From an uncultured Granulicella sp. (GTDB lineage Bacteria; Acidobacteriota; Terriglobia; Terriglobales; Acidobacteriaceae), in NCBI GenBank assembly GCA_965198885.1, contig OZ240677.1, positions 2,538,085 to 2,602,084 on the forward strand: a DNA stretch of 64,000 nucleotides, in the 5' to 3' direction. This document shows, in pieces, positions 3,956 to 34,018 of the stretch (positions are counted from its first letter, which is position 1; every line of letters begins with the position of its first letter). Both the position numbers and the translations under genes were made by a program. The notes under the pieces are model-generated. The model ran no database searches and was not told the origin of the DNA. It saw nothing but the letters and a program-made list of their open reading frames with translations.

Positions 3956-4547
3956 TAGATCCATCACTTCGAGCCTGCTTCACTGCGCAGCCTGGGTTGT
4001 GCGACAGAAAGTGTGACCATTCGCGGTGGTTTGCACTTTTTCTTTGTGCGTTGCGTTCATCGATGACGCCGGCGACTCTGCTGGTGCCTGGGTTTTGATA
4101 GTGAGCCGAGCTCTTGATGTCGACGTGGCCCAAAGTCTGGGTTGTCAGTTTTTGAGTCCCTGTCGCATCCTTGAGGTCAGTGCCAGATTTTTGGCGCGTC
4201 GCATATAGCACCAGGTCACTTGGCAGCTCCGCAGCTGCTCGATGCACTCATCGCGGTTGGGCGCGGTCAAGTTCAACCTGCTCGGTTTGGATCCACTCCA
4301 TGGGTCGATCAAGAATCGTTTGAACCTTCAATGAGTTACAGAAGAAGGAGTGACTCTTCGCCCAATTGCCGACGTAGATTGGACCGTGGACACTGAGCAA
4401 GATCTCTGACTCTTTCGAGGGCACCCTTGCGAATGGGAAGCGTCCTCTCCGAGGAGCGAAGAAGAATATGGCTCAGATGACTACTAGCCATGCTCGAAAG
4501 GGAAGGGTCAGGTCGCAATCCAGCCTAGCAAGTATCCGTCCAGACAG

Positions 4548-5948
4548 TTACATATTGGCAATCATTCGGGAGGCAAATTCGCTTGTTGCGACTCGAGTCG
4601 CACCCTGCATCTGACGCTCGAAATCGTAAGTGACGAATTTCTGCTGGATCGTCATTTCCATCGAGGATTCAATCAGACGGGCCGCCTCCGGCCACCCTAT
4701 GAAGTGGAAGAGCATGACCCCTGAGAGGATGACAGACCCCGGGTTGATCACGTCCTTATCGGCATACTTTGGGGCGGTGCCGTGTGTTGCTTCGAAGACA
4801 GCATAACCGTCTCCTATGTTCCCACCAGGAGCTATCCCTAGTCCTCCAACCTGTGCAGCGGCGGCGTCTGAAAGGTAGTCCCCATTCAGGTTTGTGGTGG
4901 CGAGCACGTCGTAATCGGATGGTCGAATAATAATCTGCTGAAAGATGGAATCTGCGATGCGGTCGTTAATCAAGAGTTTGTTCTTCCATTGGTTATTGCC
5001 GTGAGTTTCTCCAATTTGGGCTATCACGGACTCGACCTCCTTAACGATTGAGTCACCAAACTCTGTCGGAGCAAATTCTATGCCGGGCTCGATCATGGCT
5101 GCATTTTCACGGGCAGTGATTCCGGGGGACTTTTCCATGTTGTCCAAAATCCAGCTTTCTCGCTCTGTAATGGTCTCGGAACGAAACTCGTCGGTCGCCA
5201 CTTCATAACCCCATTCGCGAAATGCGCCTTCGGTGAACTTTTGGATATTGCCTTTATGAACGAGCGTAACGACTCTGCGACCCTCCTTTCTTGCATACTG
5301 AATGGCCGCTCGGACAAGGCGCTTTGAAGCAGTGATGGAGATGGGTTTCACTCCGACACCAGAGTCAAGGCGAATCTTCTTCTTCGTATCTTTCAGCATG
5401 TCATCGTTCAGAAAAGAGATGAACTTGGCTGCTTCCTTCGTGCCCTCTCGAAACTCGATGCCTGCATAGATGTCTTCCGTATTTTCTCGGAAGAGGACTA
5501 TGTCAAGCTTTTCCGGTTGTTTCACCGGACTAGGCACCCCGGCGTAGTACTTGACCGGTCTTACGCACTGGTAGAGATCCATCTTTTGACGCAATGCAAC
5601 GTTCAGGGAGCGGATACCACCTCCGACCGGTGTCGTGAGCGGTCCCTTGATGGAAACCCGGAAGTCCATCGCAGCTCTAACCGTGTCTTCAGGGAGCCAT
5701 TCCTGCGTCCTGCGATACGACTTCTCTCCCGCAAGTATCTCGTACCATTCAACGGCCCGGTTCCCGCCGTAGGATTTTTCGACAGCTGCATCAAACACCC
5801 GCCGAGAGGCGCGCCAAATATCGCGCCCGATTCCATCACCTTCAATGTATGGAATGATCGGCCGATCAGGGACGTTGTACTTGCCCTCACGGTATTCGAT
5901 CCGATGACCATTTGCGGGAATTGAGATGCCGTTGTAGCTCGTCTGCAT
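4548..5948 (-). CDS. icd: NADP-dependent isocitrate dehydrogenase (homodimeric type)
   Basis: [63 protein letters not shown]. Confidence 0.96.
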
Positions 5949-6085
5949 AGTGAAAACTCCAGGACCTCATTGTCGTCGCCGAAGAGTAGCACCCGTAAAG
6001 AAGGATGAGCAAGACAAATTTACCGATCGTTCACTAAAGCGTTTACGATCTGCTAAAATCCAACGCCAGCTACAAGAGGAGACCT

Positions 6086-6394
6086 ATGACGCAGCTTGAC
6101 TTGAACGAGATCGTAGACCTCGCGATGAAGGATCCGCGCATTTCTGGTTGCATCGTCAGCAATCTTCACGGAGATCAGTCAGCTGAACGTCACCGTGGAC
6201 AAGAGACGCTAAGTCTTAGCTGGTATGATCGCGGCGACTGTAGAAGATGCACGATTGTTGCAGAAGAGAGCTCTGCGAAGATGGTTGCTCAAGTTGATCT
6301 CGGCGAAAACGCAACGCTCCGAGTGGACGCCTTTCGACCTTGCCGCATCACCGTAGCACATGAAGAGGGCTTTCTGTCCCTTGTCCTGCTGTAG
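6086..6394 (+). CDS. Hypothetical protein, 102 aa
   Basis: GAGGAG RBS just before ATG; globular-looking composition; no recognised motif. Confidence 0.55.
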   Translation: MTQLDLNEIVDLAMKDPRISGCIVSNLHGDQSAERHRGQETLSLSWYDRGDCRRCTIVAEESSAKMVAQVDLGENATLRVDAFRPCRITVAHEEGFLSLVLL

Positions 6395-6837: not shown

Positions 6838-7539
6838 TCAGGATGGGATCTTGCGCTTTCTCGTCTTGCTTGACTTGGGGCGCAGGCCACCCGTGAGAAT
6901 ATCCGTGAAGGCCTGCGCGATCTGGCTCGACGACAACTCTCCTGAAGGCTTGTACCAGGTTCCCGCCCAATTGATCGCGCCCGCTATGGCAAACGAAACG
7001 AGCTTTGGATTGCAGATAGCAATCGATCCGTCCAGTATGCCGTCTGCGACTAGACTCCGAACGGAGGCATCGATCTTGCGTTTCAGATCGCGCACACCAC
7101 GGCGTGTCTGAGCAGACAGTTCAGAGTCGTCAATCATCGCGACGCAACGCCCGAATTCATGCGTCAGCACCACCGTGGCGTACTCGTGGACATAGATTTT
7201 CAGTCGAGCCATAGCGGAACCAACGTCGGGGTTCAGCCGTCCCAAGCTCCCCTCGATTTCGGCAATGCCGCTGCGGTAACATTCCACTAGAATCTCTTCC
7301 TTGTTCCGGAAGTAATAGTAGAGCGCCGGTTTCGTGACTTTCAGCCGCGCCGCCAGAAGGCTCATCGAGGTCTTCTGGTAGCCGTGTTCAAGGAAAAGGT
7401 GGGCCGCCGTCTTCATAACGGCGTCCCGCTTGACTTCCATGCTGCGATGACGCACCTGAAAGGCCTTCCACGGCTCGTCTGCCTGTCTCTTCTCGGCATT
7501 CGGTTTGACTTTCTTCGAGGGCAAGGCACCGTCTCCCAT
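6838..7539 (-). CDS. TetR/AcrR family transcriptional regulator
   Basis: HTH AVMKTAAHLFLEHGYQKTSMSLLAARLKVTKPALYYYFRNKEEIL; C-terminal AIAGAINWAGTWYKPSG; divergent from the acyl-CoA dehydrogenase. Confidence 0.92.
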   Translation of the reverse strand: MGDGALPSKKVKPNAEKRQADEPWKAFQVRHRSMEVKRDAVMKTAAHLFLEHGYQKTSMSLLAARLKVTKPALYYYFRNKEEILVECYRSGIAEIEGSLGRLNPDVGSAMARLKIYVHEYATVVLTHEFGRCVAMIDDSELSAQTRRGVRDLKRKIDASVRSLVADGILDGSIAICNPKLVSFAIAGAINWAGTWYKPSGELSSSQIAQAFTDILTGGLRPKSSKTRKRKIPS

Positions 7540-7721: not shown

Positions 7722-8912
7722 ATGTTCGAAACAACAGAAACACTGCAGCGGCCCGACACAATCGACTACCGTTTTCCGCTCACCGTGCTGAGTGAAGATG
7801 AAATGCTTCTCCAGCAATCCGTGGCCAAGTTTGCGCGCAAAGAGATTGCGCCTCTGGCTCATGCGATGGATGAGGTGCAGAAGATGGATCCAGCGCTGAT
7901 TAAGAAACTATTCGATCAAGGATTGATGGGGATTGAGGTTCCCGTTGAATACGGCGGTAGCGGCGCATCTTTTTTCAGCTCGATTCTGGCTATTCAGGAG
8001 ATTTCCTCCGTTGATCCAGCAGTCGGCACCATGGTCGATGTACAAAACACATTGACGGTTAACGCACTGCTCTCCTACGGAAGTTCTGCGCAGAAAGATA
8101 AGTACCTTCCGCGAATCGTAACGGATCTCATTTGTTCGTATGCGCTGAGTGAGGCAGCCTCCGGCTCTGACGCTTTCGCTCTCAAGACGACAGCCCGAAA
8201 GGAAGGGAATGAGTACATTCTCAACGGCAGTAAGCTATGGATCTCAAATGCCGCAGAAGCCGGCCTCTTCATTGTCTTCACGACAGTTGACGCCTCCCTC
8301 GGCTACAAGGGGATCACGGCCTTCCTGGTTGAACGCGAAGCGGCCGGTTTCACAGTTGGTAAGAAGGAAGATAAGCTTGGCATCCGGGCCTCCTCGACGT
8401 GCGAACTGCGATTCACCGACTGCCGAGTCCCAGCTTCGGCCGTACTCGGCGAGGTGGGAAAAGGTTATAAGATTGCGATAGAAACCCTGAATGAAGGCCG
8501 CATCGGAATAGCCGCACAGATGCTTGGGCTGGCGATAGGAGCCTGGGGTCATGCGCTCAAATATACGAAAGAGCGGCGGCAGTTCGATAGGCCGATCGCG
8601 GAGTTCCAGGCGGTACAGTTTTCTCTCGCAAAGATGGCGACCGAGATTGAGGCGTGCAGGCTTATGGTCTATGACGCGGCTCGGCGCAAAGTTGCAGGGC
8701 TCCCCTTTGTGAAGGAAGCGGCCATGACCAAATACTTCGTTTCCCAGGTTGCAGAACACATAGCCAGCGAGTGCGTGGAGTTATTTGGCGGCTATGGGTT
8801 CGTGAAAGATTACCCCGTCGAAAAGCTTTATAGAGACGCCAAGATCGGACGCATCTACGAGGGAACGTCGAACATGCAGCTTGCGACGATCGCCAAGCAA
8901 ATCTTGGCGTGA
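7722..8912 (+). CDS. Short/branched-chain acyl-CoA dehydrogenase (ACADSB-like)
   Basis: LMGIEVPVEYGGSG, YALSEAASGSDAFAL, KLGIRASSTCEL, LNEGRIGIAAQMLG, catalytic RDAKIGRIYEGTSNMQ. Confidence 0.93.
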   Translation: MFETTETLQRPDTIDYRFPLTVLSEDEMLLQQSVAKFARKEIAPLAHAMDEVQKMDPALIKKLFDQGLMGIEVPVEYGGSGASFFSSILAIQEISSVDPAVGTMVDVQNTLTVNALLSYGSSAQKDKYLPRIVTDLICSYALSEAASGSDAFALKTTARKEGNEYILNGSKLWISNAAEAGLFIVFTTVDASLGYKGITAFLVEREAAGFTVGKKEDKLGIRASSTCELRFTDCRVPASAVLGEVGKGYKIAIETLNEGRIGIAAQMLGLAIGAWGHALKYTKERRQFDRPIAEFQAVQFSLAKMATEIEACRLMVYDAARRKVAGLPFVKEAAMTKYFVSQVAEHIASECVELFGGYGFVKDYPVEKLYRDAKIGRIYEGTSNMQLATIAKQILA

Positions 8913-9001: not shown

Positions 9002-9427
9002 ATGCGAATGATCGTAAGTAAGAGATATCGGCTGTCCCTTCTGCTTAGTCTTTTCGTCGCTTGCACGTTCTTGGTGTGGCCAAACTCAGCCGCTGCCCAG
9101 TGCAAAGACAGCGATCCTGTTGGGTCATACACCGGTTCTGCAACCAGTACTCAGGCGGGCGTCCTCGACATCACACTTAACCTCAAGTGCGAAAAAGGTG
9201 ACTATGCTGGATCCATGAACACGTCGGTCGGTACGTACACGATCGTTTCCGGATCCTTTCAAGCAGGCATCTTGAAGTTGGATCTTGTTTATGCTGGGAA
9301 TCACATCGCGGTCGAGCTGAAACGGAGCGGCGACGAGTTTGAGGGAACATTTAGCTCAGCAGACGATTCCGGACCGGTCAAGCTGCATCGGAGCGGCGCT
9401 GCGACGCAGAGTCCCAAACAGAAGTGA
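9002..9427 (+). CDS. Secreted hypothetical protein
   Basis: Signal peptide ending SAAAQ; beta-rich, Gly-periodic mature region with two Cys. Confidence 0.65.
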   Translation: MRMIVSKRYRLSLLLSLFVACTFLVWPNSAAAQCKDSDPVGSYTGSATSTQAGVLDITLNLKCEKGDYAGSMNTSVGTYTIVSGSFQAGILKLDLVYAGNHIAVELKRSGDEFEGTFSSADDSGPVKLHRSGAATQSPKQK

Positions 9428-9467
9428 TTCTTCGCCGACGATTCAAAGCTGAAGCAGGGAAGGAAAA

Positions 9468-10856
9468 ATGGTGCGACGTGCCGCCAATAATCTGGTCGAC
9501 GGGCAGCCACAGACGTTGCCCCTTTCCAGCTTGATGGTACCTCTCCTCTTTTTCGGTTACCTCCTCAGTTATGGCGATCGCGTTGTCTTCGGGCTCGTAC
9601 TCAAGCCGATTGAGGCCACGTTACACCTCTCTGATGCAGAGGCCGGTTTGCTTTCGGGATTTGCTTTTGCGGTGACCTATGCACTTGCCAGCCCGCTCGC
9701 CGGCTATCTCGTGGATCGCACTTCGCGGAAGGCGATCTTCCTCTTTGCGGTCTTTTTCTGGAGTGCCGCGACCTTCTCCTGCGGCTTGGCAACGACCAAA
9801 CTTGCTATGGGGATCGGCCGCGGCGCCGTAGGCGTCGGGGAAGCGCTGATGGTGCCGCTCGCCGTCTCCATCATTGGGGATACCGTGGCCGCTGCTCGAC
9901 GCGCACGGTCCGTTGCCTTCTTTTTCACGGGCGGTCCGATCGGCAGTTTAAGCGTCCTTCTTCTCGGCGGTTTGCTGCTCAAACATCTCGGCGGTCGTCC
10001 CCTGTCAGTGCCCGTCCTCGGCACGATACAGCCGTGGCAAACCTTATTTCTTCTACTTGCGGGCCCAGGGCTGGTGCTGTTTCTCGTGATTCTCCTTGGG
10101 ATGGAAGACCCCACGCGTTCAGTCGACCAACTGCAGGAGGCGAAGGCGGGAGAACTTGGGGCGACCGTGAGGTTCCTACGAGGGCACCCAGTGCTCAGCT
10201 CAGCGCTCTTCGTCGGTTATCCGCTGATACAGGTGCCAGGCGTAGCCGTGGCCGCGTGGGCGTTCATCTACTTCGATCGGGTTTATGGAATGCCGCTTGA
10301 AGAGGCGGCGGTGGCGTTTAGCTTTACCGCCGGCATCACAAGCATCTTCGGGTGCCTGCTGAGCGGACGGCTCGTACTCCTGCTTCGGAGACGCGGGTAC
10401 ATTGACGCTTCGCTGCGCGCCTGCTTGATAGGCGGTATCCTCTTCGCCGCCTTTGCAGTCCTCGGTTTACTTGCGCCCAGTCCCCGAGGCGCTCTGGCAT
10501 TCTTCAGCGTGGCATTCTTCTTTTCCTATGTTCCTACTGTCGGTGCGTACAGCGCTATCAGCGAGATCGCACCACCCACGATCCGAGCCCGCGTTACCGG
10601 ACTGAATGCCCTTACCGCTGGTATTGTCGCCACATCACTGGGACCCTACATGGTCGGTGCCCTCTCCGATCATCTTTTCCCAGACAGCAAGCTAGGTATT
10701 CGCTGGGCCATTCTGACTACATTGGTATTTTCTGTGTTCGGCGGATTTGCGCTGCTCCTTCCAGGCCTGAAAGCACTGCGCAGCCGGATCGATGCTATGA
10801 GGCAGTCCTCAGAGGTAGATCAAACAATCAGCTCACATCTCCCGTCCACGCTGTAG
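9468..10856 (+). CDS. MFS transporter (spinster/organic-acid type)
   Basis: About 12 TM segments; LSYGDRVVFG; MFS motif A-like GYLVDRTSRK; GRGAVGVGEA. Confidence 0.9.
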   Translation: MVRRAANNLVDGQPQTLPLSSLMVPLLFFGYLLSYGDRVVFGLVLKPIEATLHLSDAEAGLLSGFAFAVTYALASPLAGYLVDRTSRKAIFLFAVFFWSAATFSCGLATTKLAMGIGRGAVGVGEALMVPLAVSIIGDTVAAARRARSVAFFFTGGPIGSLSVLLLGGLLLKHLGGRPLSVPVLGTIQPWQTLFLLLAGPGLVLFLVILLGMEDPTRSVDQLQEAKAGELGATVRFLRGHPVLSSALFVGYPLIQVPGVAVAAWAFIYFDRVYGMPLEEAAVAFSFTAGITSIFGCLLSGRLVLLLRRRGYIDASLRACLIGGILFAAFAVLGLLAPSPRGALAFFSVAFFFSYVPTVGAYSAISEIAPPTIRARVTGLNALTAGIVATSLGPYMVGALSDHLFPDSKLGIRWAILTTLVFSVFGGFALLLPGLKALRSRIDAMRQSSEVDQTISSHLPSTL

Positions 10857-10857: not shown

Positions 10858-11919
10858 TCAAAGCGGCTCATTGAGCCTTAGATCGGAAGCCTGAGCCTTC
10901 CTCCCATCGAAGTGGTCTGCCAACATCTCGGGCGTAACGTCTTCCAGCTTTGCTGGAGACCACTTCGGATTTTGATCTTTATCTACGATCGCAGCTCGAA
11001 TACCTTCCACCATGTCGTGACCTCTCGCGCACGCCTGAGCCAGAAGGAATTCCTGCCTGAAAGAGACGGCAAGATTTCCGGCAACCCGAGCGTCCCGGAT
11101 CGCCTGTAAGGTGAGCTTGAGCGATGTTGGAGACATCTTCATCAGCTCTTCAACACATGCCTGTGCCTCAGCGTTTGGATGCTGAAGCAGGGCTCCCATG
11201 ATCTCTTCCATAGTCGATGCAGCAAAGCACTCATCGATCCACGCACGATGCACCTGTGACAGGCCCGGAGGTGCCTGCGCTGCGTAATCATGCAAACACT
11301 GCTCCATCGCAGTCGTAGTCGGGCAGGCTTCAAGGTCCAACGTTAGGCGAGGCAGGTCCTCGGCGCGAACCATGATGTTGGCCAAGCCGCAAAGGATTGC
11401 GTCTGCCGCACCTATCCGGCTGCCGGTCAGGCCCAAGTAAGTGCCGATCTCGCCGGGCGCGGCGCCGAGGAGATGGGTGCCGCCAACATCCGGAATGAAG
11501 CCGATGGCGGTCTCAGGCATGGCGAGCAGCGAGCGCTCCGTCACGACGCGGTGAGAACCGTGACTCGAAATGCCGATACCACCGCCCATCACGATACCGT
11601 CCATCATGACCACATAAGGCTTCGTATAACGTGAGATGTAGTAATTGAGCTGGTACTCGTTACGAAGGAAGTCGATGGCCAATTCTCGCTGGCCGGTGAC
11701 GATGGCATGATACATCGCGCGGATGTCGCCACCCGCACAGAGTCCGCGATCGCCCGCGCCGTCGACCAGCACGAACTGAACTTGAGCATCTTGAGCCCAT
11801 TCCCGAAGGGCCGTGTGCATCGCGTTCACCATAGTAGCGCTCAATGCGTTTATGGCGCGCGGGCGGTTGAGCGTGATTCTGCCGCAAGCGCCAGACACAC
11901 GTATCAAAATATCGCTCAT
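10858..11919 (-). CDS. 3-hydroxyisobutyryl-CoA hydrolase-like crotonase-family protein
   Basis: ITLNRPRAINALS, LCAGGDIRA, GIVMGGGIGIS, AMPETAIGFIPDVG, EGIRAAIVDKDQNPKW. Confidence 0.9.
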   Translation of the reverse strand: MSDILIRVSGACGRITLNRPRAINALSATMVNAMHTALREWAQDAQVQFVLVDGAGDRGLCAGGDIRAMYHAIVTGQRELAIDFLRNEYQLNYYISRYTKPYVVMMDGIVMGGGIGISSHGSHRVVTERSLLAMPETAIGFIPDVGGTHLLGAAPGEIGTYLGLTGSRIGAADAILCGLANIMVRAEDLPRLTLDLEACPTTTAMEQCLHDYAAQAPPGLSQVHRAWIDECFAASTMEEIMGALLQHPNAEAQACVEELMKMSPTSLKLTLQAIRDARVAGNLAVSFRQEFLLAQACARGHDMVEGIRAAIVDKDQNPKWSPAKLEDVTPEMLADHFDGRKAQASDLRLNEPL

Positions 11920-13518: not shown

Positions 13519-13578
13519 CTCATCGATCCCTGGGGTACAAACATCGGAGGTCTTCCCTGCATGGTACGCTAACAGGCG

Positions 13579-14766: not shown

Positions 14767-14922
14767 CAAGCGCAATTACTTCCTGCACTGAAGCCCATTG
14801 CCGTTCGTTGCTGGAATCTGCTAGCATCCTCCGCGTTCCGTATTTTTCAAGTTTGGACTTGAGAAATGGCAGGGATCAGCCAATCCGCACCAGAGTCACT
14901 GGCGCTGGCAAAGGGAGAAACT

Positions 14923-20751: not shown

Positions 20752-20820
20752 AGGGATCGATGAACCGGCCTCTTCGCCAACTGTCTGACGCCAGTGAGCA
20801 TTCTGACACATCTAGCGTGT

Positions 20821-24438: not shown

Positions 24439-24466
24439 ATCTTCTGCCTTGTAAAGGACGGCGGCT

Positions 24467-24495
24467 CCTGCCCATTGAAGCAAACAGTGGGCGGG
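24467..24495 (+). other. Intergenic stem-loop after the TonB receptor gene
   Basis: CCTGCCCATTG / CAGTGGGCGGG, 11 bp with two G-U pairs, 7 nt loop, no U-tract. Confidence 0.4.
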
Positions 24496-24516
24496 CGACG
24501 CCGAGGAAAAATTCTC

Positions 24517-25008
24517 ATGCATAACAAGGCTCTGAAGTACGTTATTGTCGAGAGCACGGGGAGCGGAGTTGTGAACGGCATCCTAAACTGTGCCGCGGCC
24601 TTTCTCCTCTTTCACGGACGAGGCCAGATTCCAATTGCAGGACCTCTCGGTCTGGTCCGGGACTTGATTGGAGAGACCTTTCTCGTAGCATCCCTCAGCT
24701 ACATGGCGGCTGCACTTATTTCTCGCCAGCGCCATCGTGCCGGAAACCTGCCTACAATGAGAACCGGGCAAGCGGCTTCTCCAAGAAACGTTTATCTTTG
24801 GTCCCTTAGCCTTGGTATTCTTTTCACAAGCGTTCTGGTGCCAATGGGCGGGCTCCTCCTTCCTCGGGCTTTTCCCGATGGCATTAGTTTCAGGAACCTC
24901 GTGCTGTTCAAAACACTCTTCGGCGCAATCCTAGGCTCGATTGCAACTTGGCTTGCCATTCACCGAGCGTTAAGCGAGCTCCACCCCCTCGAAGGCCTGA
25001 CAAATTAG
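24517..25008 (+). CDS. Hypothetical membrane protein (about 4 TM)
   Basis: Hydrophobic segments (GVVNGILNCAAAFLLF; LSLGILFTSVLVPMGGLLL; LFGAILGSIATWLAI); same strand between the receptor and the monooxygenase. Confidence 0.7.
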   Translation: MHNKALKYVIVESTGSGVVNGILNCAAAFLLFHGRGQIPIAGPLGLVRDLIGETFLVASLSYMAAALISRQRHRAGNLPTMRTGQAASPRNVYLWSLSLGILFTSVLVPMGGLLLPRAFPDGISFRNLVLFKTLFGAILGSIATWLAIHRALSELHPLEGLTN

Positions 25009-25080
25009 CTTCTTCGCTCCAGTCGTCCTTTGTACCACTCCGACAGCGACGACTTGGAATTCACCGAAATTGAGGATTCT

Positions 25081-26532
25081 ATGCCAGAACATCTTGACGT
25101 ATTGATTGTTGGCGCGGGCCTGTCGGGCATCGCAGCTGCCTATCATCTCCAGGTTCATTGCCCCAAAAAGTCCTACCGCATCGTAGAAGGCCGAAGCGCT
25201 CTCGGCGGCACCTGGGATCTGTTCCGCTATCCCGGCATCCGCTCAGACTCCGACATGCACACGATGGGATTCTCCTTCAAACCGTGGACGAACGATAAGG
25301 TAATCGCCGACGGCTCGGAGATCTTCAGCTACCTAAAGGAGACGGCGGAACAATATCACATTGATCGCCATATCCAATACAACCTCCGCGTCGTAAAGGT
25401 CAGCTGGTCTGCCGAGCAAGCCCGCTGGACCGTTGAGATGGAGCGTGGCTCCACACGGGAGAGAAGCACGCTTACCTGTTCGTTCTTGTTCATGTGCAGT
25501 GGCTACTACAGCTACGAGAAGGGCCACACACCGGAGTTCGCCGGAGTTGATCGCTTCAAGGGCCGCATCGTTCATCCGCAGCGGTGGCCCACGGATCTCG
25601 ACTACGCGGGCAAGCAGGTGGTCATCATCGGGAGCGGCGCAACCGCGGTGACGCTCGTTCCTTCCATGGCAAAGACTGCGGGGCACGTCACGATGCTGCA
25701 GCGCTCGCCCACCTACATTGTTGCTCGGCCAGGAACGGATCCTTTCGCGATCCGGATGAAAAAGTACATGCCACAGAGTCTGGCGTCGCGGGTGACACGC
25801 TGGAGGAATATTCTGCTCGGGATGTACTTCTACAAGGTCGCACGCACGCAGCCGGAAAAGTTCAGCGCTGCATTGATCGGCGGGGCGAGGGCACAACTCG
25901 GTGAGAACTACGACGTCGACACTCACTTCACACCGAAGTACAAGCCATGGGACCAGCGGCTTTGCCTGGTGCCCGATGGCGATCTCTTCAAGGCGATCCG
26001 AGAAGGCCACGCCACCATAGTCACCGACACGATCGAAAGTTTCACCGAGACCGGCATCAGGCTGACTTCAGGCAAGGAACTTGTGGCCGATGTGATCGTG
26101 ACGGCAACCGGGCTTACGATGCAGTTGTTGAGCGGCGTTCAAGTCTACGTAGACGATAAGCGCGTCGAACTTGGAAAGACCTTTAACTATAAGGGCACCA
26201 TGTTTAGCGGTATACCAAACTTCGCCCTTAGCATCGGCTATACCAACGCCTCTTGGACTCTGAAGGCCGAGCTGAGTTGCCTGTACGTGTGCCGGCTTCT
26301 GAAGTACATGGACCGCCACAAGTACCGTAGCGCCGTCCCAAACTTTGTCGAAGGCACGATAGGCGAGCAGCCCATGGTCGGGCTCACATCCGGCTATGTA
26401 CAACGCGCCATCGGAGAGTTGCCTAGGCAAGGCCTCAAGAAGCCATGGACGCTGCAACAGAAGTTCACTCATGACTCGGTTTCTATGCGCTATGGAAAGG
26501 TTAACGATGGGTCCTTACGTTTTGCTCGCTAA
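25081..26532 (+). CDS. Baeyer-Villiger-type flavin monooxygenase (EthA-like)
   Basis: GAGLSG, GGTWDLFRYPGIRSDSD, BVMO fingerprint FKGRIVHPQRWP, GSGATA, MLQRSPTY, TATG. Confidence 0.93.
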   Translation: MPEHLDVLIVGAGLSGIAAAYHLQVHCPKKSYRIVEGRSALGGTWDLFRYPGIRSDSDMHTMGFSFKPWTNDKVIADGSEIFSYLKETAEQYHIDRHIQYNLRVVKVSWSAEQARWTVEMERGSTRERSTLTCSFLFMCSGYYSYEKGHTPEFAGVDRFKGRIVHPQRWPTDLDYAGKQVVIIGSGATAVTLVPSMAKTAGHVTMLQRSPTYIVARPGTDPFAIRMKKYMPQSLASRVTRWRNILLGMYFYKVARTQPEKFSAALIGGARAQLGENYDVDTHFTPKYKPWDQRLCLVPDGDLFKAIREGHATIVTDTIESFTETGIRLTSGKELVADVIVTATGLTMQLLSGVQVYVDDKRVELGKTFNYKGTMFSGIPNFALSIGYTNASWTLKAELSCLYVCRLLKYMDRHKYRSAVPNFVEGTIGEQPMVGLTSGYVQRAIGELPRQGLKKPWTLQQKFTHDSVSMRYGKVNDGSLRFAR

Positions 26533-26585: not shown

Positions 26586-27794
26586 TTACTGCCAGAGTTC
26601 GCGATATAGGACACAAATCTCTTCAGCAGTCGGGATACGAGAATTGTTCTGAGGAGAGCCTGAGGCCAACGCCTGCGCCGCCATCGTGGGAGTAACGGCC
26701 AGGTAGTGCTCTCTGTCGATTCCATATTGCTGCGGTGATGGCACGCCGAGCTGAGCATTGCGTTCATAGAGACCGCGGACGAGAGCCTCAACAGCCTGGT
26801 CGTCCGTGCTACCTTCTACGGCCACTCCCATTGTTCGCGCACAAACCGCATAACGCTCGGGGGCAGCTGAAACCGAGAATGCAGTCACTGCCGGCAACAG
26901 CATGGCATTTGAAAGGCCGTGAGGAACATGAAAGTGCACACCCAAAGGACGGCTCATGCCGTGCACCAGTGCGACACTTGCATTTGAGAAAGCTATACCA
27001 GCTTGTGTCGCCGCCAGCATCATCGCCTCACGAGCCGTCCGATTGCGCGGTTCATGATAGCTGGTAGGAAGCTCTCTCCAGATCGTCTTCATCGCCGAGA
27101 GCGCGAATGCATCCGCAAACGGGTTTGCTCGGCGACTCACATAAGCTTCGATGGCATGGGTCAGGGAGTCGGTTCCCGTGTCTGCAGTTAAGCGAGCCGG
27201 CATTGTAAGCGTTAGCTCGAAATCCACAACTGCGGCTGTGGGAAGCAGAACGTCACCAGCGATAAGCATTTTCTCTTGTGTTTCCGTCTCTGTGATCACG
27301 GTAAACCGAGTCACTTCAGAACCCGTGCCGGCCGTAGTCGGAATCGCAAGATGTACTGGTCCGGCGAGCGCCGGCACGTTCGGAGACCTGTAATCGCGCA
27401 CCTTACCGCCGTTCTTCACCAGCATTCCGATCGCCTTCGCTGTATCGATTGGGCTCCCGCCGCCCAGACTTACTAAACCGTCGTGACCTCCGGCCAGATA
27501 AAGAGCGACGCCGTGCTCCACAATCGCTGACGTCGGATCAGGCAACGTGTCAAAAAAGATTGCGCAGGCGAGACCGGCTTCGCGTATCTGCGTCTGCAGC
27601 CTTTCAGGCAACCCGCTCTTCATCATGAATGGATCAGTCACGATGAGTGGACGCCTGCACCCGAGCTTTAACAACAATCCGAAGACTTCAGCGAAGGATC
27701 CACCACCGATTACTAACTGGGATGGGATACGGATATGAGAAATCACGGATCTCTCTAAAGGTTCATCGGGGCTGGTCTGCGCCATATGCATCAT
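26586..27794 (-). CDS. Iron-containing alcohol dehydrogenase
   Basis: LGGGSPIDTAK, IPTTAGTGSEVT, DSLTHAIEAY, VHGMSRPLG, PHGLSNAMLLP. Confidence 0.93.
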   Translation of the reverse strand: MMHMAQTSPDEPLERSVISHIRIPSQLVIGGGSFAEVFGLLLKLGCRRPLIVTDPFMMKSGLPERLQTQIREAGLACAIFFDTLPDPTSAIVEHGVALYLAGGHDGLVSLGGGSPIDTAKAIGMLVKNGGKVRDYRSPNVPALAGPVHLAIPTTAGTGSEVTRFTVITETETQEKMLIAGDVLLPTAAVVDFELTLTMPARLTADTGTDSLTHAIEAYVSRRANPFADAFALSAMKTIWRELPTSYHEPRNRTAREAMMLAATQAGIAFSNASVALVHGMSRPLGVHFHVPHGLSNAMLLPAVTAFSVSAAPERYAVCARTMGVAVEGSTDDQAVEALVRGLYERNAQLGVPSPQQYGIDREHYLAVTPTMAAQALASGSPQNNSRIPTAEEICVLYRELWQ

Positions 27795-28546
27795 CGATTC
27801 TGTGGGTGCCGAAATCCACTTTACGGCTCGAAGGGTCTGTCCGCCTGCTTGTCACAACTTTGCCGCGGGTACCACAGGCAAACTCAACATCCTCTATTCA
27901 TCGAGCGATCTCACCGCATGCATCAGCGAGAGACTTTCCTATTTCCTTCGAGGGAATGCGAGCCAGGTCCTCACATCGCTGGTCGATCATTGAACGTAAA
28001 CCAGGATAGGATCTCGGCGCGCGGCGAGTAGCTGACTGGCTCGCCAGGCGGAGAAAGCCGCCTGGCAGAATCGACATCCAGGATGACCTCAACGTCGGCG
28101 AAGTTGACGTGCGTGAAAGGCTGATGATTAGCGGGGTTCCAGACTGCCCCGTTTCGTCCGGATTGTGACGCGTGCGCGACTCCGCCGATGCTTGTGTCGA
28201 TCGTGTGCAAAAGGCCGTGAACGGAAGGTGTGAAGTCCGCGGAAGCGAGCTCAGGCACTGGCGGAACGATCATGATGGTACCTCCCTGGCACGTTCACCG
28301 ATTGCGGACTGCCTTTGTCTTTGTTTTTGGGCCCGCACCAAGTCTCCTCCCGCAGGAAAGACCTTGTCTCGCGGATGCGGCTGGACAGCAGTTGTCTGGG
28401 GCGAGTATCTTACCGATTGGTTAGTTAGTCAATCTTCATGGCAACTGGCAAATACGCAGGGTCAGCTTGGCTCCCATACGTTAGTGCCGTCACGCAAGCG
28501 ACGTTAGAGTCGCGCCGGATTACCAGGTTGGAGGCAGCACGCAAAC

Positions 28547-29707
28547 ATGTCCCACTTCGGCGACTTTCAAAACGAGATCTACCGAGACGGCCTGCGCGGT
28601 GTCCTCTCCCGTCTTCCAGTGGATTTCAGTTCACTGGAACAAAAGGCGCGAGCTGCCATGCCCGCCTCAGTGCTCTCCTACGTTCAGGGCGGATGTGGCG
28701 ATGAATTCACACAGCGACGCAATGCAGAGGCATTCCATCACTGGGGTTTAATCCCTCGGATGTTGGTCGACTGCGCCACACGCGATCTCTCGATCAAGCT
28801 TTTCGGGATGGAGCTCGCCACGCCCATCTTTCTCAGTCCGATCGGCGTTCTTGGTATCTGTACGCCGGATGGCCGCGGCGACGTCCATGTGGCCCGTGCT
28901 GCCGCTCAAACGGGCGTGCCGATGATAGCGTCAACCTTATCAAACGATCCACTTGAGACGATAGCCGAGACATTGGGCACGACTCCGGGTTTCTTCCAGC
29001 TCTACACGCCGAAGAACAAAGAGGTCGCTGAAAGCCTTGTCAGACGTGCAGAGACAGCCGGCTACAAGGCCATAGTCGTGACGCTCGACACGTGGGTCAC
29101 AGGATGGCGCCCCCAAGACCTCAACGCGGGCAATTTCCCGCAGCTGCGAGGCCACGTTCTGCAGAACTACTTCAGCGACCCATGCTTTCGGGGTATGCTC
29201 GCCAGACCCCCCGAAGAAGACCTGGCCGCGGCAATCGGTCAGTGGGCGCAAACCTTCGGCAAAGTGCTTACCTGGGCAGACATGCCGTGGTTACGTTCGC
29301 TTACAAAGCTTCCGCTGATCCTGAAAGGGATCTGTCACCCCGAAGACGCACGGCGAGCCATCGACGCAGGCGCTGATGGTATCTATTGTTCCAACCACGG
29401 CGGGCGGCAGGCAAATGGAGGCGCCGCAGCAATCGACATGTTGCCCGCGATCATCGAAGCATCCCGCAGCACACCCGTTCTGTTCGATTCCGGCGTGCGC
29501 TCCGGAAGCGACATCGTCAAAGGTCTTGCGATGGGAGCCGCCGCCATCGGGATCGGCCGGCCCTATGCTTACGGTCTCGCACTTGACGGAACCGCGGGCG
29601 TCGTCCATGTACTCAAGAGTTTGCTTGCCGAAGCCGACCTACTGATGGCCGTCGATGGCTTTCCTAACTTATCTACTCTGCGGCAGGCCGGCGTCATCCG
29701 GCTCTGA
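28547..29707 (+). CDS. FMN-dependent alpha-hydroxy acid oxidase, lactate 2-monooxygenase-like
   Basis: FFQLY, VVTLDT, LILKGI, SNHGGRQ, DSGVRSGSDIVK, IGRPYAYGLA; N-terminus FGDFQNEIY typical of LMO-like proteins. Confidence 0.9.
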   Translation: MSHFGDFQNEIYRDGLRGVLSRLPVDFSSLEQKARAAMPASVLSYVQGGCGDEFTQRRNAEAFHHWGLIPRMLVDCATRDLSIKLFGMELATPIFLSPIGVLGICTPDGRGDVHVARAAAQTGVPMIASTLSNDPLETIAETLGTTPGFFQLYTPKNKEVAESLVRRAETAGYKAIVVTLDTWVTGWRPQDLNAGNFPQLRGHVLQNYFSDPCFRGMLARPPEEDLAAAIGQWAQTFGKVLTWADMPWLRSLTKLPLILKGICHPEDARRAIDAGADGIYCSNHGGRQANGGAAAIDMLPAIIEASRSTPVLFDSGVRSGSDIVKGLAMGAAAIGIGRPYAYGLALDGTAGVVHVLKSLLAEADLLMAVDGFPNLSTLRQAGVIRL

Positions 29708-29786
29708 CCAGACTAAGTTCCACTCTGCGGCGCCAAGCGCGTGCTAAGACGGCAACACTTTACGGATTGTCCAAGGATTGAATCGT

Positions 29787-31382
29787 ATGAATATCCCACT
29801 TACTCCTATTCGCTTTCTTCGCCACGCTGAGCGCCAGTACGCAGGCCGCACTGCCATTGTCTCCAGGGGAGAACGGTTGACGTACGCGCAGTTCGCGCAG
29901 CGTTCCGCCCTGCTCGCCGGGGCATTGAAGCAAGTGGGCATTCGACCGGGCGAGCGCGTCGCTTTCCTCGGCACGAACTCTCATCGGCTGCTCGAGGCTT
30001 ACTACGGTGTCCTCGAAGCCGGAGCCATACTTTTGCCGCTGAACATCCGGCTCTCTCCCGCCGAGCTCACCTTTGTTCTCGAAGATTCCGGGGCCAGCAT
30101 ACTCTTCATCGACCCGCAGTTTTTGCCAATCGTCGAATCTTTTAAGTCACGCTTGAGCTCCGTCCGCATCTTCTGCCAGCTCGATGGCGATGTGAGCGCG
30201 GACTGGGTTTTGCCGACGAACTACGATCAGTGGATCGGCGCGGCAACGCCTTACCGATGCGATATCACACGTGTTGACGAAGATGCAGTTGCTGAAATCT
30301 TTTACACTAGCGGCACCAGTGCGCAGCCGAAGGGCGTCATGCTGACGCACCGCAACATCTATCTTCATGCGCTTGAAACAGCTCACGGATTCAGTGTTGA
30401 GAACGGCTCTGTGGAACTGCACACTATACCGTTGTTCCACGCGAACGGTTGGGGTATTGCTCATTTTCTGACCATGCTCGGCGGCAAGCACGTGATGGTC
30501 GAGACATTCGACCCGCTGGCCATCTTCAAGTTTATCGAGACCGAACGCGTGACACAGTTCAACGCGGTACCCTTCATGGCTACGGTACTGGTCAATCACC
30601 CAAAGATCAAAGAGTACGATCTGAGCAGTGTGACACGCATCGTCATCGGCGGGGCGGCGTCCTCACCCACCTTAATTCGCGAAGTGGAGCAAGCCTTCGG
30701 ATGTACTTGTTTTTCCGGTTACGGGCTGACTGAGACCTGCCCAGCCCTCACCTACTCGTCCATGAAGCCGGAGCTGGCCTGGAGCGACGAGCAGCGTTAC
30801 GCCGGTCAGGCTATGACGGGTTACCCATTCCCGGGCTGCGAGCTTCATATCGCTGGACCGAACGATGAGTGGCTTCCCGAGGACGGCATCTCCGTCGGAG
30901 AGTTGATTGCGCGCGGCGATGGAGTCATGAAAGGTTACTGGAACCAGCCCGAGCTAACAGCAGAGGCTCTACGCGGTGGCTGGCTGCGTACGGGAGATAT
31001 GGCGACGATCGATCAGAACGGCTACATCCTCATTGTCGATCGCAAGAAAGACATCATCGTAAGCGGCGGAGAGAACATCTCCTCGCTCGAGGTGGAAAAG
31101 GCCATGTTGGCCCATGCAGCGGTGCTGGAAATCGCCGTCATTCCCGTAGCGGACCAGCGCTGGGGCGAGGTTCCCAAAGCCCTCGTCGTTCTCAAGCCAG
31201 GCGCTGCAACGACAGAGGCGGAGCTGATCGAATTCAGCCGTTCCTGTCTGACGCACTACAAGTGTCCCAAGACGGTTCTCTTCGTGGAATCACTGCCCAA
31301 GACAGGCACAGGGAAAGTCTTGAAGAAGAATCTGCGGGCTCTATATGAGAATGTCCAGCCGCAGACAACAGTCCTTAGCTAA
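29787..31382 (+). CDS. Acyl-CoA synthetase / fatty-acid-CoA ligase (ANL family)
   Basis: YTSGTSAQPKG, YGLTET, RTGD, DRKKDIIVSGGENIS, PKTGTGK. Confidence 0.93.
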   Translation: MNIPLTPIRFLRHAERQYAGRTAIVSRGERLTYAQFAQRSALLAGALKQVGIRPGERVAFLGTNSHRLLEAYYGVLEAGAILLPLNIRLSPAELTFVLEDSGASILFIDPQFLPIVESFKSRLSSVRIFCQLDGDVSADWVLPTNYDQWIGAATPYRCDITRVDEDAVAEIFYTSGTSAQPKGVMLTHRNIYLHALETAHGFSVENGSVELHTIPLFHANGWGIAHFLTMLGGKHVMVETFDPLAIFKFIETERVTQFNAVPFMATVLVNHPKIKEYDLSSVTRIVIGGAASSPTLIREVEQAFGCTCFSGYGLTETCPALTYSSMKPELAWSDEQRYAGQAMTGYPFPGCELHIAGPNDEWLPEDGISVGELIARGDGVMKGYWNQPELTAEALRGGWLRTGDMATIDQNGYILIVDRKKDIIVSGGENISSLEVEKAMLAHAAVLEIAVIPVADQRWGEVPKALVVLKPGAATTEAELIEFSRSCLTHYKCPKTVLFVESLPKTGTGKVLKKNLRALYENVQPQTTVLS

Positions 31383-31478: not shown

Positions 31479-32906
31479 TTAGGATCCAGCCGGCAGAATG
31501 AGCAGACGCTCCTCGGTCATCTCGAAGATGGCGGATCTTACCCCTTCCCTGCCAATCCCCGAGTTCTTTACTCCTCCATACGGCAGGTGGTCGGCGCGCC
31601 ATGCAGACGACTCGTCCACCAGGACGGCGCCGACCTCAAGTTCATTCCAGGCCTGGGTCATCTTCTTCCACTCACCCGTGAAGACGGCCGCCTGCAAGCC
31701 GTACTTCGAGCCATTGACGGTGCTCAGTACCTCTGGGAAGCTCTCGTACGCCTCAAGGATAACCACCGGCGCAAAAACCTCCTCGCAGCTTAGTTGTGCC
31801 GTACCCGGAACATCGCTAAGCAGCGTCGGTTCCAGAATGCTTCCAATCCGCTTGCCGCCTGCATGCAGCGCTGCGCCCATGTCTACAGCCTCGTTGATCC
31901 AACTTTCAGCCCTCACGGCGGCCGCTTCGTTGATCATCGGGCCGATCCGGGTAGAAGCTTCTGCAGGGTCTCCCATCTTGAGGTTGCGCAATTCTTCCAC
32001 TAATCTGTCAACAAGATTCGACTTCAGCGAGGCATGAACGAACACCCGCTGTACTGAAATACAGCTCTGGCCCGCATAGGTATAGCCGCCCGCGATTATC
32101 TTCGGAACCGCCTTTGCAAGGTCTCCATCCTCGCAGACGATCACTGCCGCGTTTCCTCCTAGCTCGAGCGTAACCCGAGGCGTTGCGGATTGGCGTCGGA
32201 GCATCCATCCGATGTTTGCGCTACCGGTGAAGCTCAGCATGGCAACTCGCGCATCTGCCACAAGCTGCGCTGTCACTTCATTCGAACATGGCAGTACGCT
32301 GATGCCACCTATGGGCCAGCCGGCTTCACGGACGGCTCGCCCGAGCCACAGCGAGCTCAAAGGCGTTTGCGGCGCAGGTTTGATGATGATGGGATTGCCG
32401 GACGCAATGGCCGGAGCAAGCTTGTGCGCCACGAGATTAAGGGGAAAGTTAAAAGGGGTAATCCCCAGAATCGGTCCGATTGGAAACCGTCGGGAGAGAG
32501 CCACTCGGCCCTCTGTGCCAGCGGTCCAATCGGCCGGTGTCACCTCGCCACCGATCCGTTTTGCTTCTTCAGCCGCGACGCGAAACGTTTGAATCGCACG
32601 TGCAACTTCATTCCGGGCGTCTGTGATGGGCTTGCCCGCCTCCAACACAATCAAGCCCGCAACATGCGCTGCCTCCTGGATCAATTTATCAGCTATGTTG
32701 TGAAGAACCGACGCGCGCTGCCACGAGCTTAACTGCCGCGTCTGGACAAACGCCTGCCGCGCCAGTGCGGAGGCTCGTTCCGCATCGGCAAGGTTGGCCT
32801 GGCAGACTTCAGCCACAATCGAGCCATCATACGGATTGTGGATCTCCACAGTCTCCGAGCGAAGTGCATCCTCACTGCCCAGCAATATTCTCTCTACGTT
32901 GCGCAC
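31479..32906 (-). CDS. NAD(P)-dependent aldehyde dehydrogenase (lactaldehyde DH / GapN-related branch)
   Basis: GITPFNFPLNLVAHKLAPAIASGN, LELGGNAA, catalytic GQSCIS, EEVFAPV. Confidence 0.9.
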   Translation of the reverse strand: MRNVERILLGSEDALRSETVEIHNPYDGSIVAEVCQANLADAERASALARQAFVQTRQLSSWQRASVLHNIADKLIQEAAHVAGLIVLEAGKPITDARNEVARAIQTFRVAAEEAKRIGGEVTPADWTAGTEGRVALSRRFPIGPILGITPFNFPLNLVAHKLAPAIASGNPIIIKPAPQTPLSSLWLGRAVREAGWPIGGISVLPCSNEVTAQLVADARVAMLSFTGSANIGWMLRRQSATPRVTLELGGNAAVIVCEDGDLAKAVPKIIAGGYTYAGQSCISVQRVFVHASLKSNLVDRLVEELRNLKMGDPAEASTRIGPMINEAAAVRAESWINEAVDMGAALHAGGKRIGSILEPTLLSDVPGTAQLSCEEVFAPVVILEAYESFPEVLSTVNGSKYGLQAAVFTGEWKKMTQAWNELEVGAVLVDESSAWRADHLPYGGVKNSGIGREGVRSAIFEMTEERLLILPAGS

Positions 32907-33153
32907 CGACAGCTCCTGCTGGAGACGAGGTTAGATCGTCGCTCCAGACATCATCATAGTGAAAGGTAATCAACATCGACAGCCAGCGGATGGTGATTCA
33001 CAAGCAATTTGGCAGGGGCCGCAAGGATCGCGAGCGCGACCGTGAGGAAACCCCGCCCTTATTGCAAGAGACCTCGTCCGTCCAAGAAGGGGCCTCCTGC
33101 TCTCGCCCAGGCTGCTTTTATATATGGCTAGTTCCGCAGTATGGCACACAGCC

Positions 33154-33813
33154 TCAGAGGTGCCCGTACTTCTGAAGGGCGTCCAGCAGTGGCAAACCAG
33201 CGCGAATCTCGGCTCTTGCGTTGCTCTCCATTGCTGAGAGCTTTCGGACGTCGGCGGCGATGGCCGCCGCGAGCGTCGATGGCACTACGATCACCCCATC
33301 CGCGTCCCCTACCACAATGTCACCGGGTGATACCGTAAGCGCAGCACGTAGCGCCCCCTTGACCTGCACCGGTACGCCGTACGACGTTACGCGCCATCGG
33401 CCCACGCCTTGCGCAGGTGTTCGGTAACGCGCAACGACCGGCATGCCACAGTCCCGAAGAAATGCCACATCGCGGACGCCGCCGTCCACCACCGCTGCAG
33501 CGCATCCCCGGGAACGCATGGCGCTAGCCAGCAGATCCCCGAAGCAGCAGACACCTTGCGCCCCATTTCCGGCCCACATCGCCACCGCGCCGCTAGGCAT
33601 TCCATCGATCGCCTCCAGCTTCAGCCGGTCGCTTCCCGCGTAGATCCCGGGTTCGCCCATAATTGTGTAGCAAGGGCCCGCGAAGGCTTCGGACCGTGCC
33701 ACCGGCGAGAGGCTGTTGTCAACCACCGGTGGCTCCATCCCCAGGCGGTCAAATACATCGGCGATCACCGCCGTACCCGCCGCGCGTAGATCCTCAGTGT
33801 TGTTGTCACGCAT
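33154..33813 (-). CDS. RraA-family protein / 4-hydroxy-4-methyl-2-oxoglutarate aldolase-like
   Basis: FGDLLASAMRSRGCAAAVVDGGVRD, VSPGDIVVGDADGVVVVP; start 33813 after a GGGAGG RBS. Confidence 0.88.
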   Translation of the reverse strand: MRDNNTEDLRAAGTAVIADVFDRLGMEPPVVDNSLSPVARSEAFAGPCYTIMGEPGIYAGSDRLKLEAIDGMPSGAVAMWAGNGAQGVCCFGDLLASAMRSRGCAAAVVDGGVRDVAFLRDCGMPVVARYRTPAQGVGRWRVTSYGVPVQVKGALRAALTVSPGDIVVGDADGVIVVPSTLAAAIAADVRKLSAMESNARAEIRAGLPLLDALQKYGHL

Positions 33814-34018
33814 GCGAACTCCTCCCTGTGCCGGGATGTGCAAAGGCTCCATCGAGTTCGTCACAGTTCACCCTAGCAGCCCATTCGAAAGTGTACACAT
33901 CACAGCGAAACGAAGGCCTTGACCTCGCATGCTTATAGGACCTTTTCAAGGAGTATCTGAGCGCGGGATGGCGTGAAAACCAGCTACAATCGGGGCAACT
34001 TACCCGTTCCTACAATGT

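Follow-up and report, generated by a model that had tools for sequence, protein, structure and literature searches.

Catabolic islands located next to tRNA genes are exemplified by the clc element and by other catabolic islands and integrative and conjugative elements. We analyzed a block of this appearance in a 64,000-nt stretch of DNA ('the window') from an uncultured Granulicella sp. (assembly GCA_965198885.1, contig OZ240677.1, positions 2,538,085–2,602,084; all coordinates below are those of the window). The block, hereafter the island, extends from the 3′ end of a tRNA-Thr(CGT) gene (position 3955) to ∼33,950 and carries 23 open reading frames (ORFs) and one aldehyde dehydrogenase (ALDH) pseudogene. 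Like the islands mentioned above, it starts right at the 3′ end of a tRNA gene, deviates in composition, carries catabolic cargo and is missing from the same site in relatives. Unlike clc-type islands, it has no integrase, att direct repeats or conjugation genes, and its cargo is a family-wide gene cluster, most likely from a donor of the same family.

Hotspots of horizontal gene transfer that lack integrases reportedly exist between core genes. The locus resembles such hotspots: a variable segment adjoins a tRNA gene and core genes that are conserved, the cargo is lineage-specific and genes of mobile elements are absent. It differs from them in that relatives do not share the right flank, so that turnover through homologous recombination between flanks is at most a possibility here.

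The island is real, well delimited, free of mobility genes and of intra-family origin; the process behind it is ordinary, and current concepts are unchanged by these findings. It does present an unusually clean case of a large catabolic unit being transferred within a family. We consider it probable that a conserved supercluster was acquired horizontally, with added genes, from a related donor and that its role is oxidative.

Compositional boundaries of the island

GC content is 60–68% in the flanks, where the GC skew lies around +0.3; the interior (4–34 kb) has 53–60% GC and a skew near zero. In 300-bp windows the skew drops from +0.3 to ∼0 at 3750–3950 and comes back at 33,950–34,100; foreign composition thus begins no more than ∼100 bp from the 3′ end of tRNA-Thr. 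The skew at third codon positions, counted on the + strand (skew3), is −0.061 ± 0.09 in the island (23 genes) versus +0.535 ± 0.17 in the flanks (18 genes; Mann–Whitney P = 2e-7). All 23 island genes fall between −0.25 and +0.11; 17 of the 18 flank genes fall between +0.36 and +0.69 irrespective of coding strand, so that host genes on the minus strand keep the positive skew. GC content at third codon positions (GC3) differs as well (0.64 in the island versus 0.76 in the flanks, P = 1e-6), and correlation of strand-symmetrised tetranucleotide profiles is 0.73–0.81 between island and flanks compared with 0.89–0.94 among the flanks. The difference is far beyond chance and the block is compositionally foreign to its host; the change of codon style right after the tRNA, pointed out in a preliminary description of this DNA, is sharp by all three measures (skew3, GC3 and tetranucleotide profile).

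The tRNA site in relatives and in a second strain

A scan with the protein of the DUF6599 gene, which lies upstream of the tRNA, found 20 related loci (the best match is 81% identical; loci are designated by L numbers where they have to be told apart). All are of Acidobacteriaceae/Granulicella type except two metagenome-assembled genomes labelled Rhodanobacteraceae. The order AmiC–DUF6599–tRNA-Thr(CGT) is kept in 16 of the 20, and none of the 20 has island genes or genes of the right flank within 10 kb of the site; the island is found there in a conspecific strain only. The lack of synteny that the preliminary description had proposed to check is therefore seen in every relative examined. The DNA downstream of the tRNA differs from genome to genome and includes MerR–TPR genes, a histidine kinase/response regulator/RND efflux set, GH35, GH5, FG-GAP, PQQ-ADH or CTP synthase genes. 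A collapse of skew just downstream of the same tRNA occurs in three of these genomes too (L001, L003 and L006). On the right side, the neighborhood of the M48 peptidase gene is unrelated in a relative with 77% identity (L030), and no relative has tRNA-Thr adjoining M48.

In the closest relative (L001), a GH28 gene is placed between DUF6599 and the tRNA (L001 11564–13078). Downstream of the tRNA, at 13298–21147, L001 has a two-component system with RND efflux genes whose skew3 is +0.06 to −0.40 versus +0.7 upstream; this zero-to-negative-skew block is either an inversion or another cargo of foreign origin that follows this tRNA.

The conspecific genome, hereafter strain 2 (L031), comes from an independent assembly, where a 99% identical M48 protein is encoded on a 2.56-Mb contig. 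Strain 2 shares both the left and the right junction at 97–98% nucleotide identity, so the block did not arise as an artefact of assembly. Mismatches between the two strains amount to 1.74% for the island versus 2.66% for the flanks (block identities of 98.2% versus 97.0–97.7%). Since the complete block is present in both strains, it existed before they diverged; we infer that it was acquired before these two strains, now ∼2–3% apart at the nucleotide level, separated. Strain 2 alone has an IS481-family element (316-aa transposase) between tRNA-Thr and icd at ∼4480–4488, as well as small indels; 9 bp of window sequence (4480–4488) match on either side of the insertion. A stretch of 284 bp with 99.6% identity is located at the end of another locus (L029), where it is cut by the locus end. 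Exact matches to the window isocitrate dehydrogenase and M48 proteins were not found.

A conserved supercluster forms the core of the island

The nearest relatives of the island proteins are all from Acidobacteriaceae; homologues of the HMG-CoA reductase (HMGR)-like protein, for example, are 84–92% identical in other members of the family. JGI contig Ga0683343_0000269 is collinear, gene for gene, with positions 6.8–32.9 kb of the window (80–93% identity at the amino acid level, 81–83% at the nucleotide level). As ∼26 kb are collinear in other Acidobacteriaceae, the core must have moved as a unit from within the family: this comparison indicates that the core is a family-level supercluster, from the first TetR gene (TetR1) to the second ALDH gene (ALDH2), that arrived whole and not gene by gene. 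Nor is the block an idiosyncratic gathering of genes.

In Ga0683343_0000269 the cluster has fadE–thiolase–fadB on one side and an abhydrolase gene on the other. In relatives generally, the cluster is not linked to the tRNA and often adjoins fadE–thiolase–fadB. Granulicella chromosomes have rearranged versions; OZ240672.1 carries the cluster at 1.50 Mb, ∼1.9 Mb away from its tRNA-Thr locus (3.41 Mb). The metagenome of strain 2 contains, in a different organism, an unskewed copy of the cluster linked to fad genes. The genes for the outer-membrane receptor, a 177-aa protein and a Baeyer–Villiger monooxygenase (BVMO) form a trio that no version of the cluster (L024, L026 and L027) breaks up, inverted ones included.

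Compared with the closest clusters (L021 and L027), the window has additional genes: icd, the pair unk141 and MFS, and RraA; the abhydrolase gene and most of one ALDH gene are lost. The unk141–MFS pair, located between the ACAD and ECH_2 genes, is absent from the clusters of L021, L026 and L035. The RraA gene is outside the cluster of L027, where an abhydrolase gene takes its place.

A literature search for a catabolic cluster with HMGR in Acidobacteria returned nothing specific. HMGR homologues with 74% and 58% identity occur in Nevskiaceae and on an Alteromonas plasmid, respectively; their contexts are uninformative, the gene being alone or among unrelated genes. The supercluster, itself uncharacterised, is common in Acidobacteriaceae, a family dominant in acidic soils and lichen-type metagenomes, and its substrate would add to the picture of carbon turnover in these places. 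In it a receptor–BVMO operon occurs together with a PRK06112 thiamine diphosphate (ThDP) enzyme, a lactate-monooxygenase-like enzyme and an enzyme of FcrA type.

Genes of the island

Pfam and NCBIfam assign the island products to two Zn-dependent alcohol dehydrogenases (Zn-ADHs), an Fe-dependent ADH, a short-chain dehydrogenase (SDR), two intact ALDHs, an FMO-like BVMO, an FMN_dh enzyme, a ThDP enzyme, an acyl-CoA dehydrogenase (ACAD), an ECH_2 protein, a 4HBT thioesterase, an AMP-ligase, a class-I HMGR homologue and an RraA-like aldolase. Regulation and transport are represented by two TetR proteins, an MFS transporter and a CarboxypepD_reg/OMP_b-brl_4 receptor; three small ORFs have no family assignment. 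All families reported in the preliminary description were found, and the NADP-isocitrate dehydrogenase and the ALDH pseudogene, not listed there, have to be added.

The tRNA-Thr(CGT) gene at the left boundary (3880–3955, + strand) was predicted by ARAGORN and is the sole Rfam match in the window (75 bits). A gene-free spacer follows (3956–4547), whose ORFs have no match in Pfam, PHROGs or PDB. Next is icd (4548–5948, − strand), predicted to encode a full-length NADP-dependent isocitrate dehydrogenase of housekeeping type (NF005610, 648.6 bits with a cut-off of 585). The protein is 80–85% identical to isocitrate dehydrogenases of Acidobacteriaceae; the gene is island-like in composition (GC3 0.59, skew3 +0.11). 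In one relative icd is situated in a skewed core context, GlnA–MscS–ICDH–glyoxalase–MDH. A hypothetical 102-aa ORF without a family (6086–6394, +) was called as a gene in strain 2 too.

The supercluster starts with TetR1 (6838–7539, −), a FadR-like regulator (TetR_N and TetR_C_24, a weak match to Bacillus FadR, 80% identity to the L021 orthologue), which is divergent from the ACAD gene (7722–8912, +). Besides Pfam ACAD domains, the ACAD product has human short/branched-chain acyl-CoA dehydrogenase (SBCAD) as its best PDB match (2jif, 459 bits; the next match has 354). The inserted pair (9002–10856, +) encodes a secreted 141-aa protein of no known type (unk141) and an MFS_1 transporter; both are present in strain 2. 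On the minus strand follow a 3-hydroxyisobutyryl-CoA hydrolase (HIBCH) gene (ECH_2; 10858–11919; NF004127, 424 bits with a cut-off of 274; PDB 4hdt, 296 bits), a class III-like Zn-ADH gene (Zn-ADH1; 11942–13090; ADH_N and ADH_zinc_N, with matches to TIGR03989 and TIGR02818 under cut-off) and a gene for a 4HBT-fold acyl-CoA thioesterase (13087–13563; 4HBT_2/4HBT), the start codon of which is uncertain (orthologues have 143–158 aa). The HMGR homologue (13579–14766, +; PF00368) and an MdlD-like ALDH (ALDH1; 14866–16386, +; Aldedh, best NCBIfam match BenzalDHMdlD at 282 bits, under cut-off) are encoded on the opposite strand.

A minus-strand operon (16472–20811) carries genes for TetR2, a Zn-ADH of polyol-dehydrogenase type (Zn-ADH2), the ThDP enzyme and a BudC-like SDR. 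The ThDP enzyme belongs to a subfamily of its own, PRK06112 (864 bits, cut-off 673); it matches cyclohexane-1,2-dione hydrolase (CDH) or HACL with 150–175 bits, AHAS with 196 and BbmA with 216. The next operon, on the plus strand (21016–26532; Pfam), encodes the outer-membrane receptor, a 177-aa membrane protein and an EthA-type BVMO. The receptor combines CarboxypepD_reg with the OMP_b-brl_4 β-barrel. TonB-dependent receptors have a Plug domain and a 22-strand barrel; here no Plug domain was detected, and the L026 orthologue has a weak match to TonB_dep_Rec_b-barrel. The TonB label given earlier to this receptor is tentative. In the BVMO the fingerprint FxGxxxHxxxW(P/D) reads FKGRIVHPQRWP at residue 176, and Rossmann motifs are located at residue 28 (GAGLSG) and near 201 (GSGATA); BVMOs in PDB align over the N-terminal 220 aa only, as is typical of the EthA type.

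The Fe-ADH gene (26586–27794, −; Pfam/NCBIfam) is lactaldehyde-reductase/ErcA-like. It is followed by the remnant of a third ALDH gene (27715–28273, −), recognized by tblastn and blastn against L027 and bearing a ∼1.07-kb internal deletion. The 517-aa ALDH of L027 aligns (tblastn) at residues 1–90, 93–178 and 486–512 only, with ∼300 internal codons gone and a blastn gap at L027 16888–17955. The deletion is common to strain 2, where no gene is called and the match to the window is unbroken. An operon at 28547–31382 (+) codes for an FMN-dependent enzyme (FMN_dh) and a medium/long-chain acyl-CoA ligase (PRK06187, 536 bits, cut-off 476). Described earlier as an FMN hydroxy-acid oxidase, the former does belong to the FMN_dh family; its closest relative is an oxidative decarboxylase, lactate 2-monooxygenase (PDB 6dvh), which it matches over the full length with 489 bits. 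The core ends with a lactaldehyde-dehydrogenase-like ALDH gene (ALDH2; 31479–32906, −; 432 bits, under cut-off).

The last island gene (33154–33864, −; skew3 −0.08) encodes an RraA-like protein of the class II aldolase/oxaloacetate decarboxylase family (PF03737; PDB 3noj, CHA aldolase, 64 bits). The M48 peptidase gene (34019–35404, +; Pfam; skew3 +0.55) is the first host-type gene of the right flank and has the same neighbors in strain 2.

Predicted role of the supercluster

Subterminal oxidation of alkanes and methyl ketones proceeds with a BVMO, an esterase and ADH/ALDH enzymes, as in mekAB of Pseudomonas veronii and acmAB of Gordonia. In the island, too, secondary-alcohol dehydrogenases occur with a type-I BVMO, an ADH, an ALDH and, leading to β-oxidation, a CoA ligase. 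Unlike in these systems, an esterase occurs only in the cluster of relatives (the L027 abhydrolase), and the BVMO is of EthA type and coupled to an outer-membrane receptor. With valine and isoleucine catabolism the island shares the SBCAD-like ACAD and a HIBCH above the NCBIfam cut-off; in contrast to that route, it has no crotonase, 3-hydroxyisobutyrate dehydrogenase or methylmalonate-semialdehyde dehydrogenase. The FMN enzyme resembles mycobacterial lactate 2-monooxygenase. An ALS-like ThDP enzyme flanked by two secondary-alcohol dehydrogenases recalls routes of diol-to-dione cleavage. ThDP-dependent hydrolases or lyases of C–C bonds include CDH, HACL and IolD; this enzyme is no closer to CDH or HACL than to AHAS or BbmA.

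These likenesses suggest, as the most plausible role of the island, that acyl-CoAs are made from aliphatic compounds, partly with 2-methyl branches, namely alcohols, ketones, diols and 2-hydroxy acids. Five divergently transcribed operons, two of which have a TetR repressor gene next to them, would funnel aliphatic oxygenates (primary and secondary alcohols, ketones, vicinal diols and 2-hydroxy acids, some of them 2-methyl-branched) to acyl-CoA for β-oxidation. The receptor and the MFS transporter would take care of import; ADHs and the SDR would oxidize alcohols, the BVMO would form esters, the ThDP enzyme would cleave C–C bonds and the lactate-monooxygenase-like flavoenzyme would carry out oxidative decarboxylation. 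Further steps would involve the ALDHs and the CoA ligase, the FcrA-type oxidoreductase of alcohol and acyl-CoA, and SBCAD and HIBCH. Oxidation of a hydrophobic methyl-branched or cyclic alcohol or ketone had been proposed earlier: the enzyme families do fit alcohol and ketone oxidation, and the SBCAD-like ACAD and HIBCH support 2-methyl-branched acyl-CoAs.

The association of Zn-ADH, ThDP enzyme and SDR is also present on a plasmid of Sinorhizobium meliloti (NZ_CP021821.1; L033, 317–329 kb), where the PRK06112 orthologue (60% identity) is in a GntR-regulated operon. Its neighbors there are Zn-ADH, quinone oxidoreductase, ABC transporter, FabG, shikimate dehydrogenase and FAD/GMC oxidoreductase genes, a context that hints at an alicyclic or polyol substrate for this module.

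FcrA-type pocket changes in the HMGR homologue

FcrA is an HMGR-derived fatty acyl-CoA reductase, described as reductive, that does not reduce HMG-CoA (PMC11948995). In all FcrA proteins Leu862 of human HMGR is changed to a bulky residue (Trp), and the pocket Lys of human HMGR (K735, printed as Lys795 in PMC11948995) is replaced; replacement of Ser684 (by Glu) is stated for FcrA of N. pharaonis only (PMC11948995).

The island homologue shares with FcrA the class-I HMGR fold and the catalytic Glu, Lys, Asp and His (motifs TTEGTLVAS, DTDKK, GQD and VSSH; also DAAGQNM and WVSSH). As in FcrA, Trp aligns with human Leu862 (DWVSSH versus HLVKSH), Lys735 is absent (VRQISQAGAF, with no Lys opposite NKNLVGS) and the genome context lacks mevalonate genes. 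Unlike FcrA, the homologue keeps Ser684 (LSGNIDTDKK), has no Lad/ACP extension and no WS/DGAT neighbor, and is situated among oxidative catabolic genes. These residues make the homologue likelier to be an acyl-CoA/alcohol oxidoreductase than an enzyme of mevalonate metabolism; the earlier label of HMG-CoA reductase stands as a statement of homology and is weakened by the pocket. The enzyme may run in the direction from alcohol to acyl-CoA, as its oxidative neighbors suggest. These neighbors also give an FcrA-type enzyme a catabolic setting, apart from the synthesis of wax esters.

Origin of the island and alternative explanations

The scheme that we prefer is import of the conserved supercluster (TetR1 to ALDH2, 6.8–32.9 kb) with addition of icd, the MFS/unk141 pair and the RraA-like aldolase gene, the donor most likely being a related, unskewed member of Acidobacteriaceae. 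Several points weigh against this scheme. No sequenced donor is closer than 92.7% at the amino acid or 83% at the nucleotide level. Presence of icd within the island is unusual. No integrase, transposase or direct repeats were found that would account for the insertion. The functional part of the scheme is drawn from homology, with several enzymes under NCBIfam equivalog cut-offs, and the crotonase, the esterase and one ALDH needed for a complete route are missing or decayed in this genome. Finally, the drift of island substitutions toward the host skew is weak and non-significant: polarised substitutions since the strain split, counted on the + strand, include 71 C>T versus 52 G>A and 98 losses of C versus 72 losses of G. 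Either the acquisition is recent relative to the build-up of skew or the skew process is slow.

It is possible, though we hold it doubtful, that the island is a mosaic in which icd, the MFS/unk141 pair, the core supercluster and the RraA gene were acquired separately at the site. The gene differences from L021 and L027 listed above would fit such a history, as would the lower GC of icd and its spacers (0.50–0.55 versus 0.56–0.60 in the core) and the variability of cargo downstream of this tRNA among relatives. On the other hand, near-zero skew is common to all 23 genes, the complete arrangement is already present in both strains and the extra genes could equally come from an unsampled donor.

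It is rather unlikely that the block is a tRNA island of the classical kind, inserted by an integrase that was later deleted or decayed along with the att repeats. The start of foreign DNA within ∼100 bp of the tRNA 3′ end and the skew collapse beyond the same tRNA in L001, L003 and L006 speak for it, as does a string noticed by eye, LGHxxIxSSxxY, in ORF 3918–4247 (−) that looks like box II of tyrosine recombinases. This ORF was rejected as an integrase candidate, having no support in Pfam, PHROGs or PDB at E ≤ 10. No integrase or transposase was found by Pfam/NCBIfam among window ORFs of at least 100 aa, by Pfam at E ≤ 10 in gap ORFs (icd flanks and 32970–33284), by PHROGs in ORFs of 3956–4547 or by PDB search with the 3918–4247 fragment; nor is an integrase present in the first large ORF past the tRNA in ten relatives or in any downstream ORF of L001. 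A duplication of the tRNA 3′ end (attR) of at least 12 nt was absent near the right end, at 33.9–34.0 kb (blastn-short). These negatives agree with the preliminary description, which had seen no integrase, transposase or tRNA 3′ duplication. Its picture of an immobilised, tRNA-anchored island is right about an acquired block that abuts a tRNA and has no recognisable mobility genes; for tRNA-directed integration, both an integrase and an att repeat are lacking. The tRNA is a variable chromosome junction and may simply mark a breakpoint, rather than being a proven attachment site.

With regard to function, degradation of terpenoids or mevalonate, or production of fatty alcohols for wax esters, appears improbable. 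A class-I HMGR homologue, SBCAD, HIBCH and BVMO are indeed present, and FcrA is described as reductive (PMC11948995). Still, the homologue has lost the HMG-binding Lys735 and has the Leu862 to Trp change of FcrA; the FcrA-type pocket thus weakens the terpenoid and mevalonate cue of the preliminary description. Besides, the island has no HMG-CoA lyase or synthase, Atu/Liu carboxylase or WS/DGAT, and the genes around the homologue encode ADHs, ALDHs and a thioesterase and are controlled by TetR, with fad genes alongside in relatives.

To a bolder extension of the acquisition scheme we give little credence. There the skew (G3/C3 of ∼3–4 on the leading strand) would be a built-in clock that exposes a ∼26-kb supercluster moving without mobile-element machinery among apparently lichen-type Acidobacteriaceae; a xenologous icd would have replaced the native copy; and the FcrA-type enzyme, reversed into an ATP-independent alcohol to acyl-CoA oxidoreductase, would with HIBCH and the thioesterase 'swap ends' of 2-methyl-branched hydroxy acids.

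A native region with odd composition due to a local mutational or selective regime is very hard to credit. All nearest relatives of the island proteins are from Acidobacteriaceae and icd is a housekeeping gene, as a native region would have it; yet minus-strand host genes keep the positive skew, GC3 and tetranucleotide usage deviate too, and the block is absent from the site in all relatives, with the cluster located elsewhere in them. No mechanism is known by which 30 kb of DNA, coding on both strands, would escape replication-strand bias. An assembly chimera, for which the metagenome-type source and co-resident relatives with similar clusters might speak, can be dismissed, given that both junctions recur in an independently assembled strain (97–98% identity) with strain-specific indels and IS481, and that host-type sequence lies on either side within a single 4.46-Mb contig.

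GC skew of the host

The extreme GC skew of the host is a more unusual feature than the island. It is common to six related loci (L001, L002, L006, L016, L028 and L030), is not present in G. rosea (L020) or L035, and is a lineage trait of the host's relatives; a literature search on extreme skew in Acidobacteriaceae gave nothing specific. The strand bias marks imported DNA at the resolution of single genes and could serve, across whole genomes of these uncultured Acidobacteriaceae, to list acquisitions and to estimate their age roughly. In the flanks (1–3900 and 34000–64000) the replication-strand skew is extraordinary, a repair or polymerase defect being one possible cause.

A second, small patch of foreign composition is located at 44000–45900, where an ORF at 44495–45748 (+, 417 aa) has GC3 of 0.57, skew3 of −0.04 and no Pfam family. 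The similarity of strain 2 to the window breaks off at this patch, and an IS481 transposase gene is nearby in strain 2. In OZ240672.1 (L028 2806–5409) a GH79/PKD gene with skew3 of −0.15 is situated amid core genes with +0.3 to +0.7 and is probably another acquisition flagged by skew.

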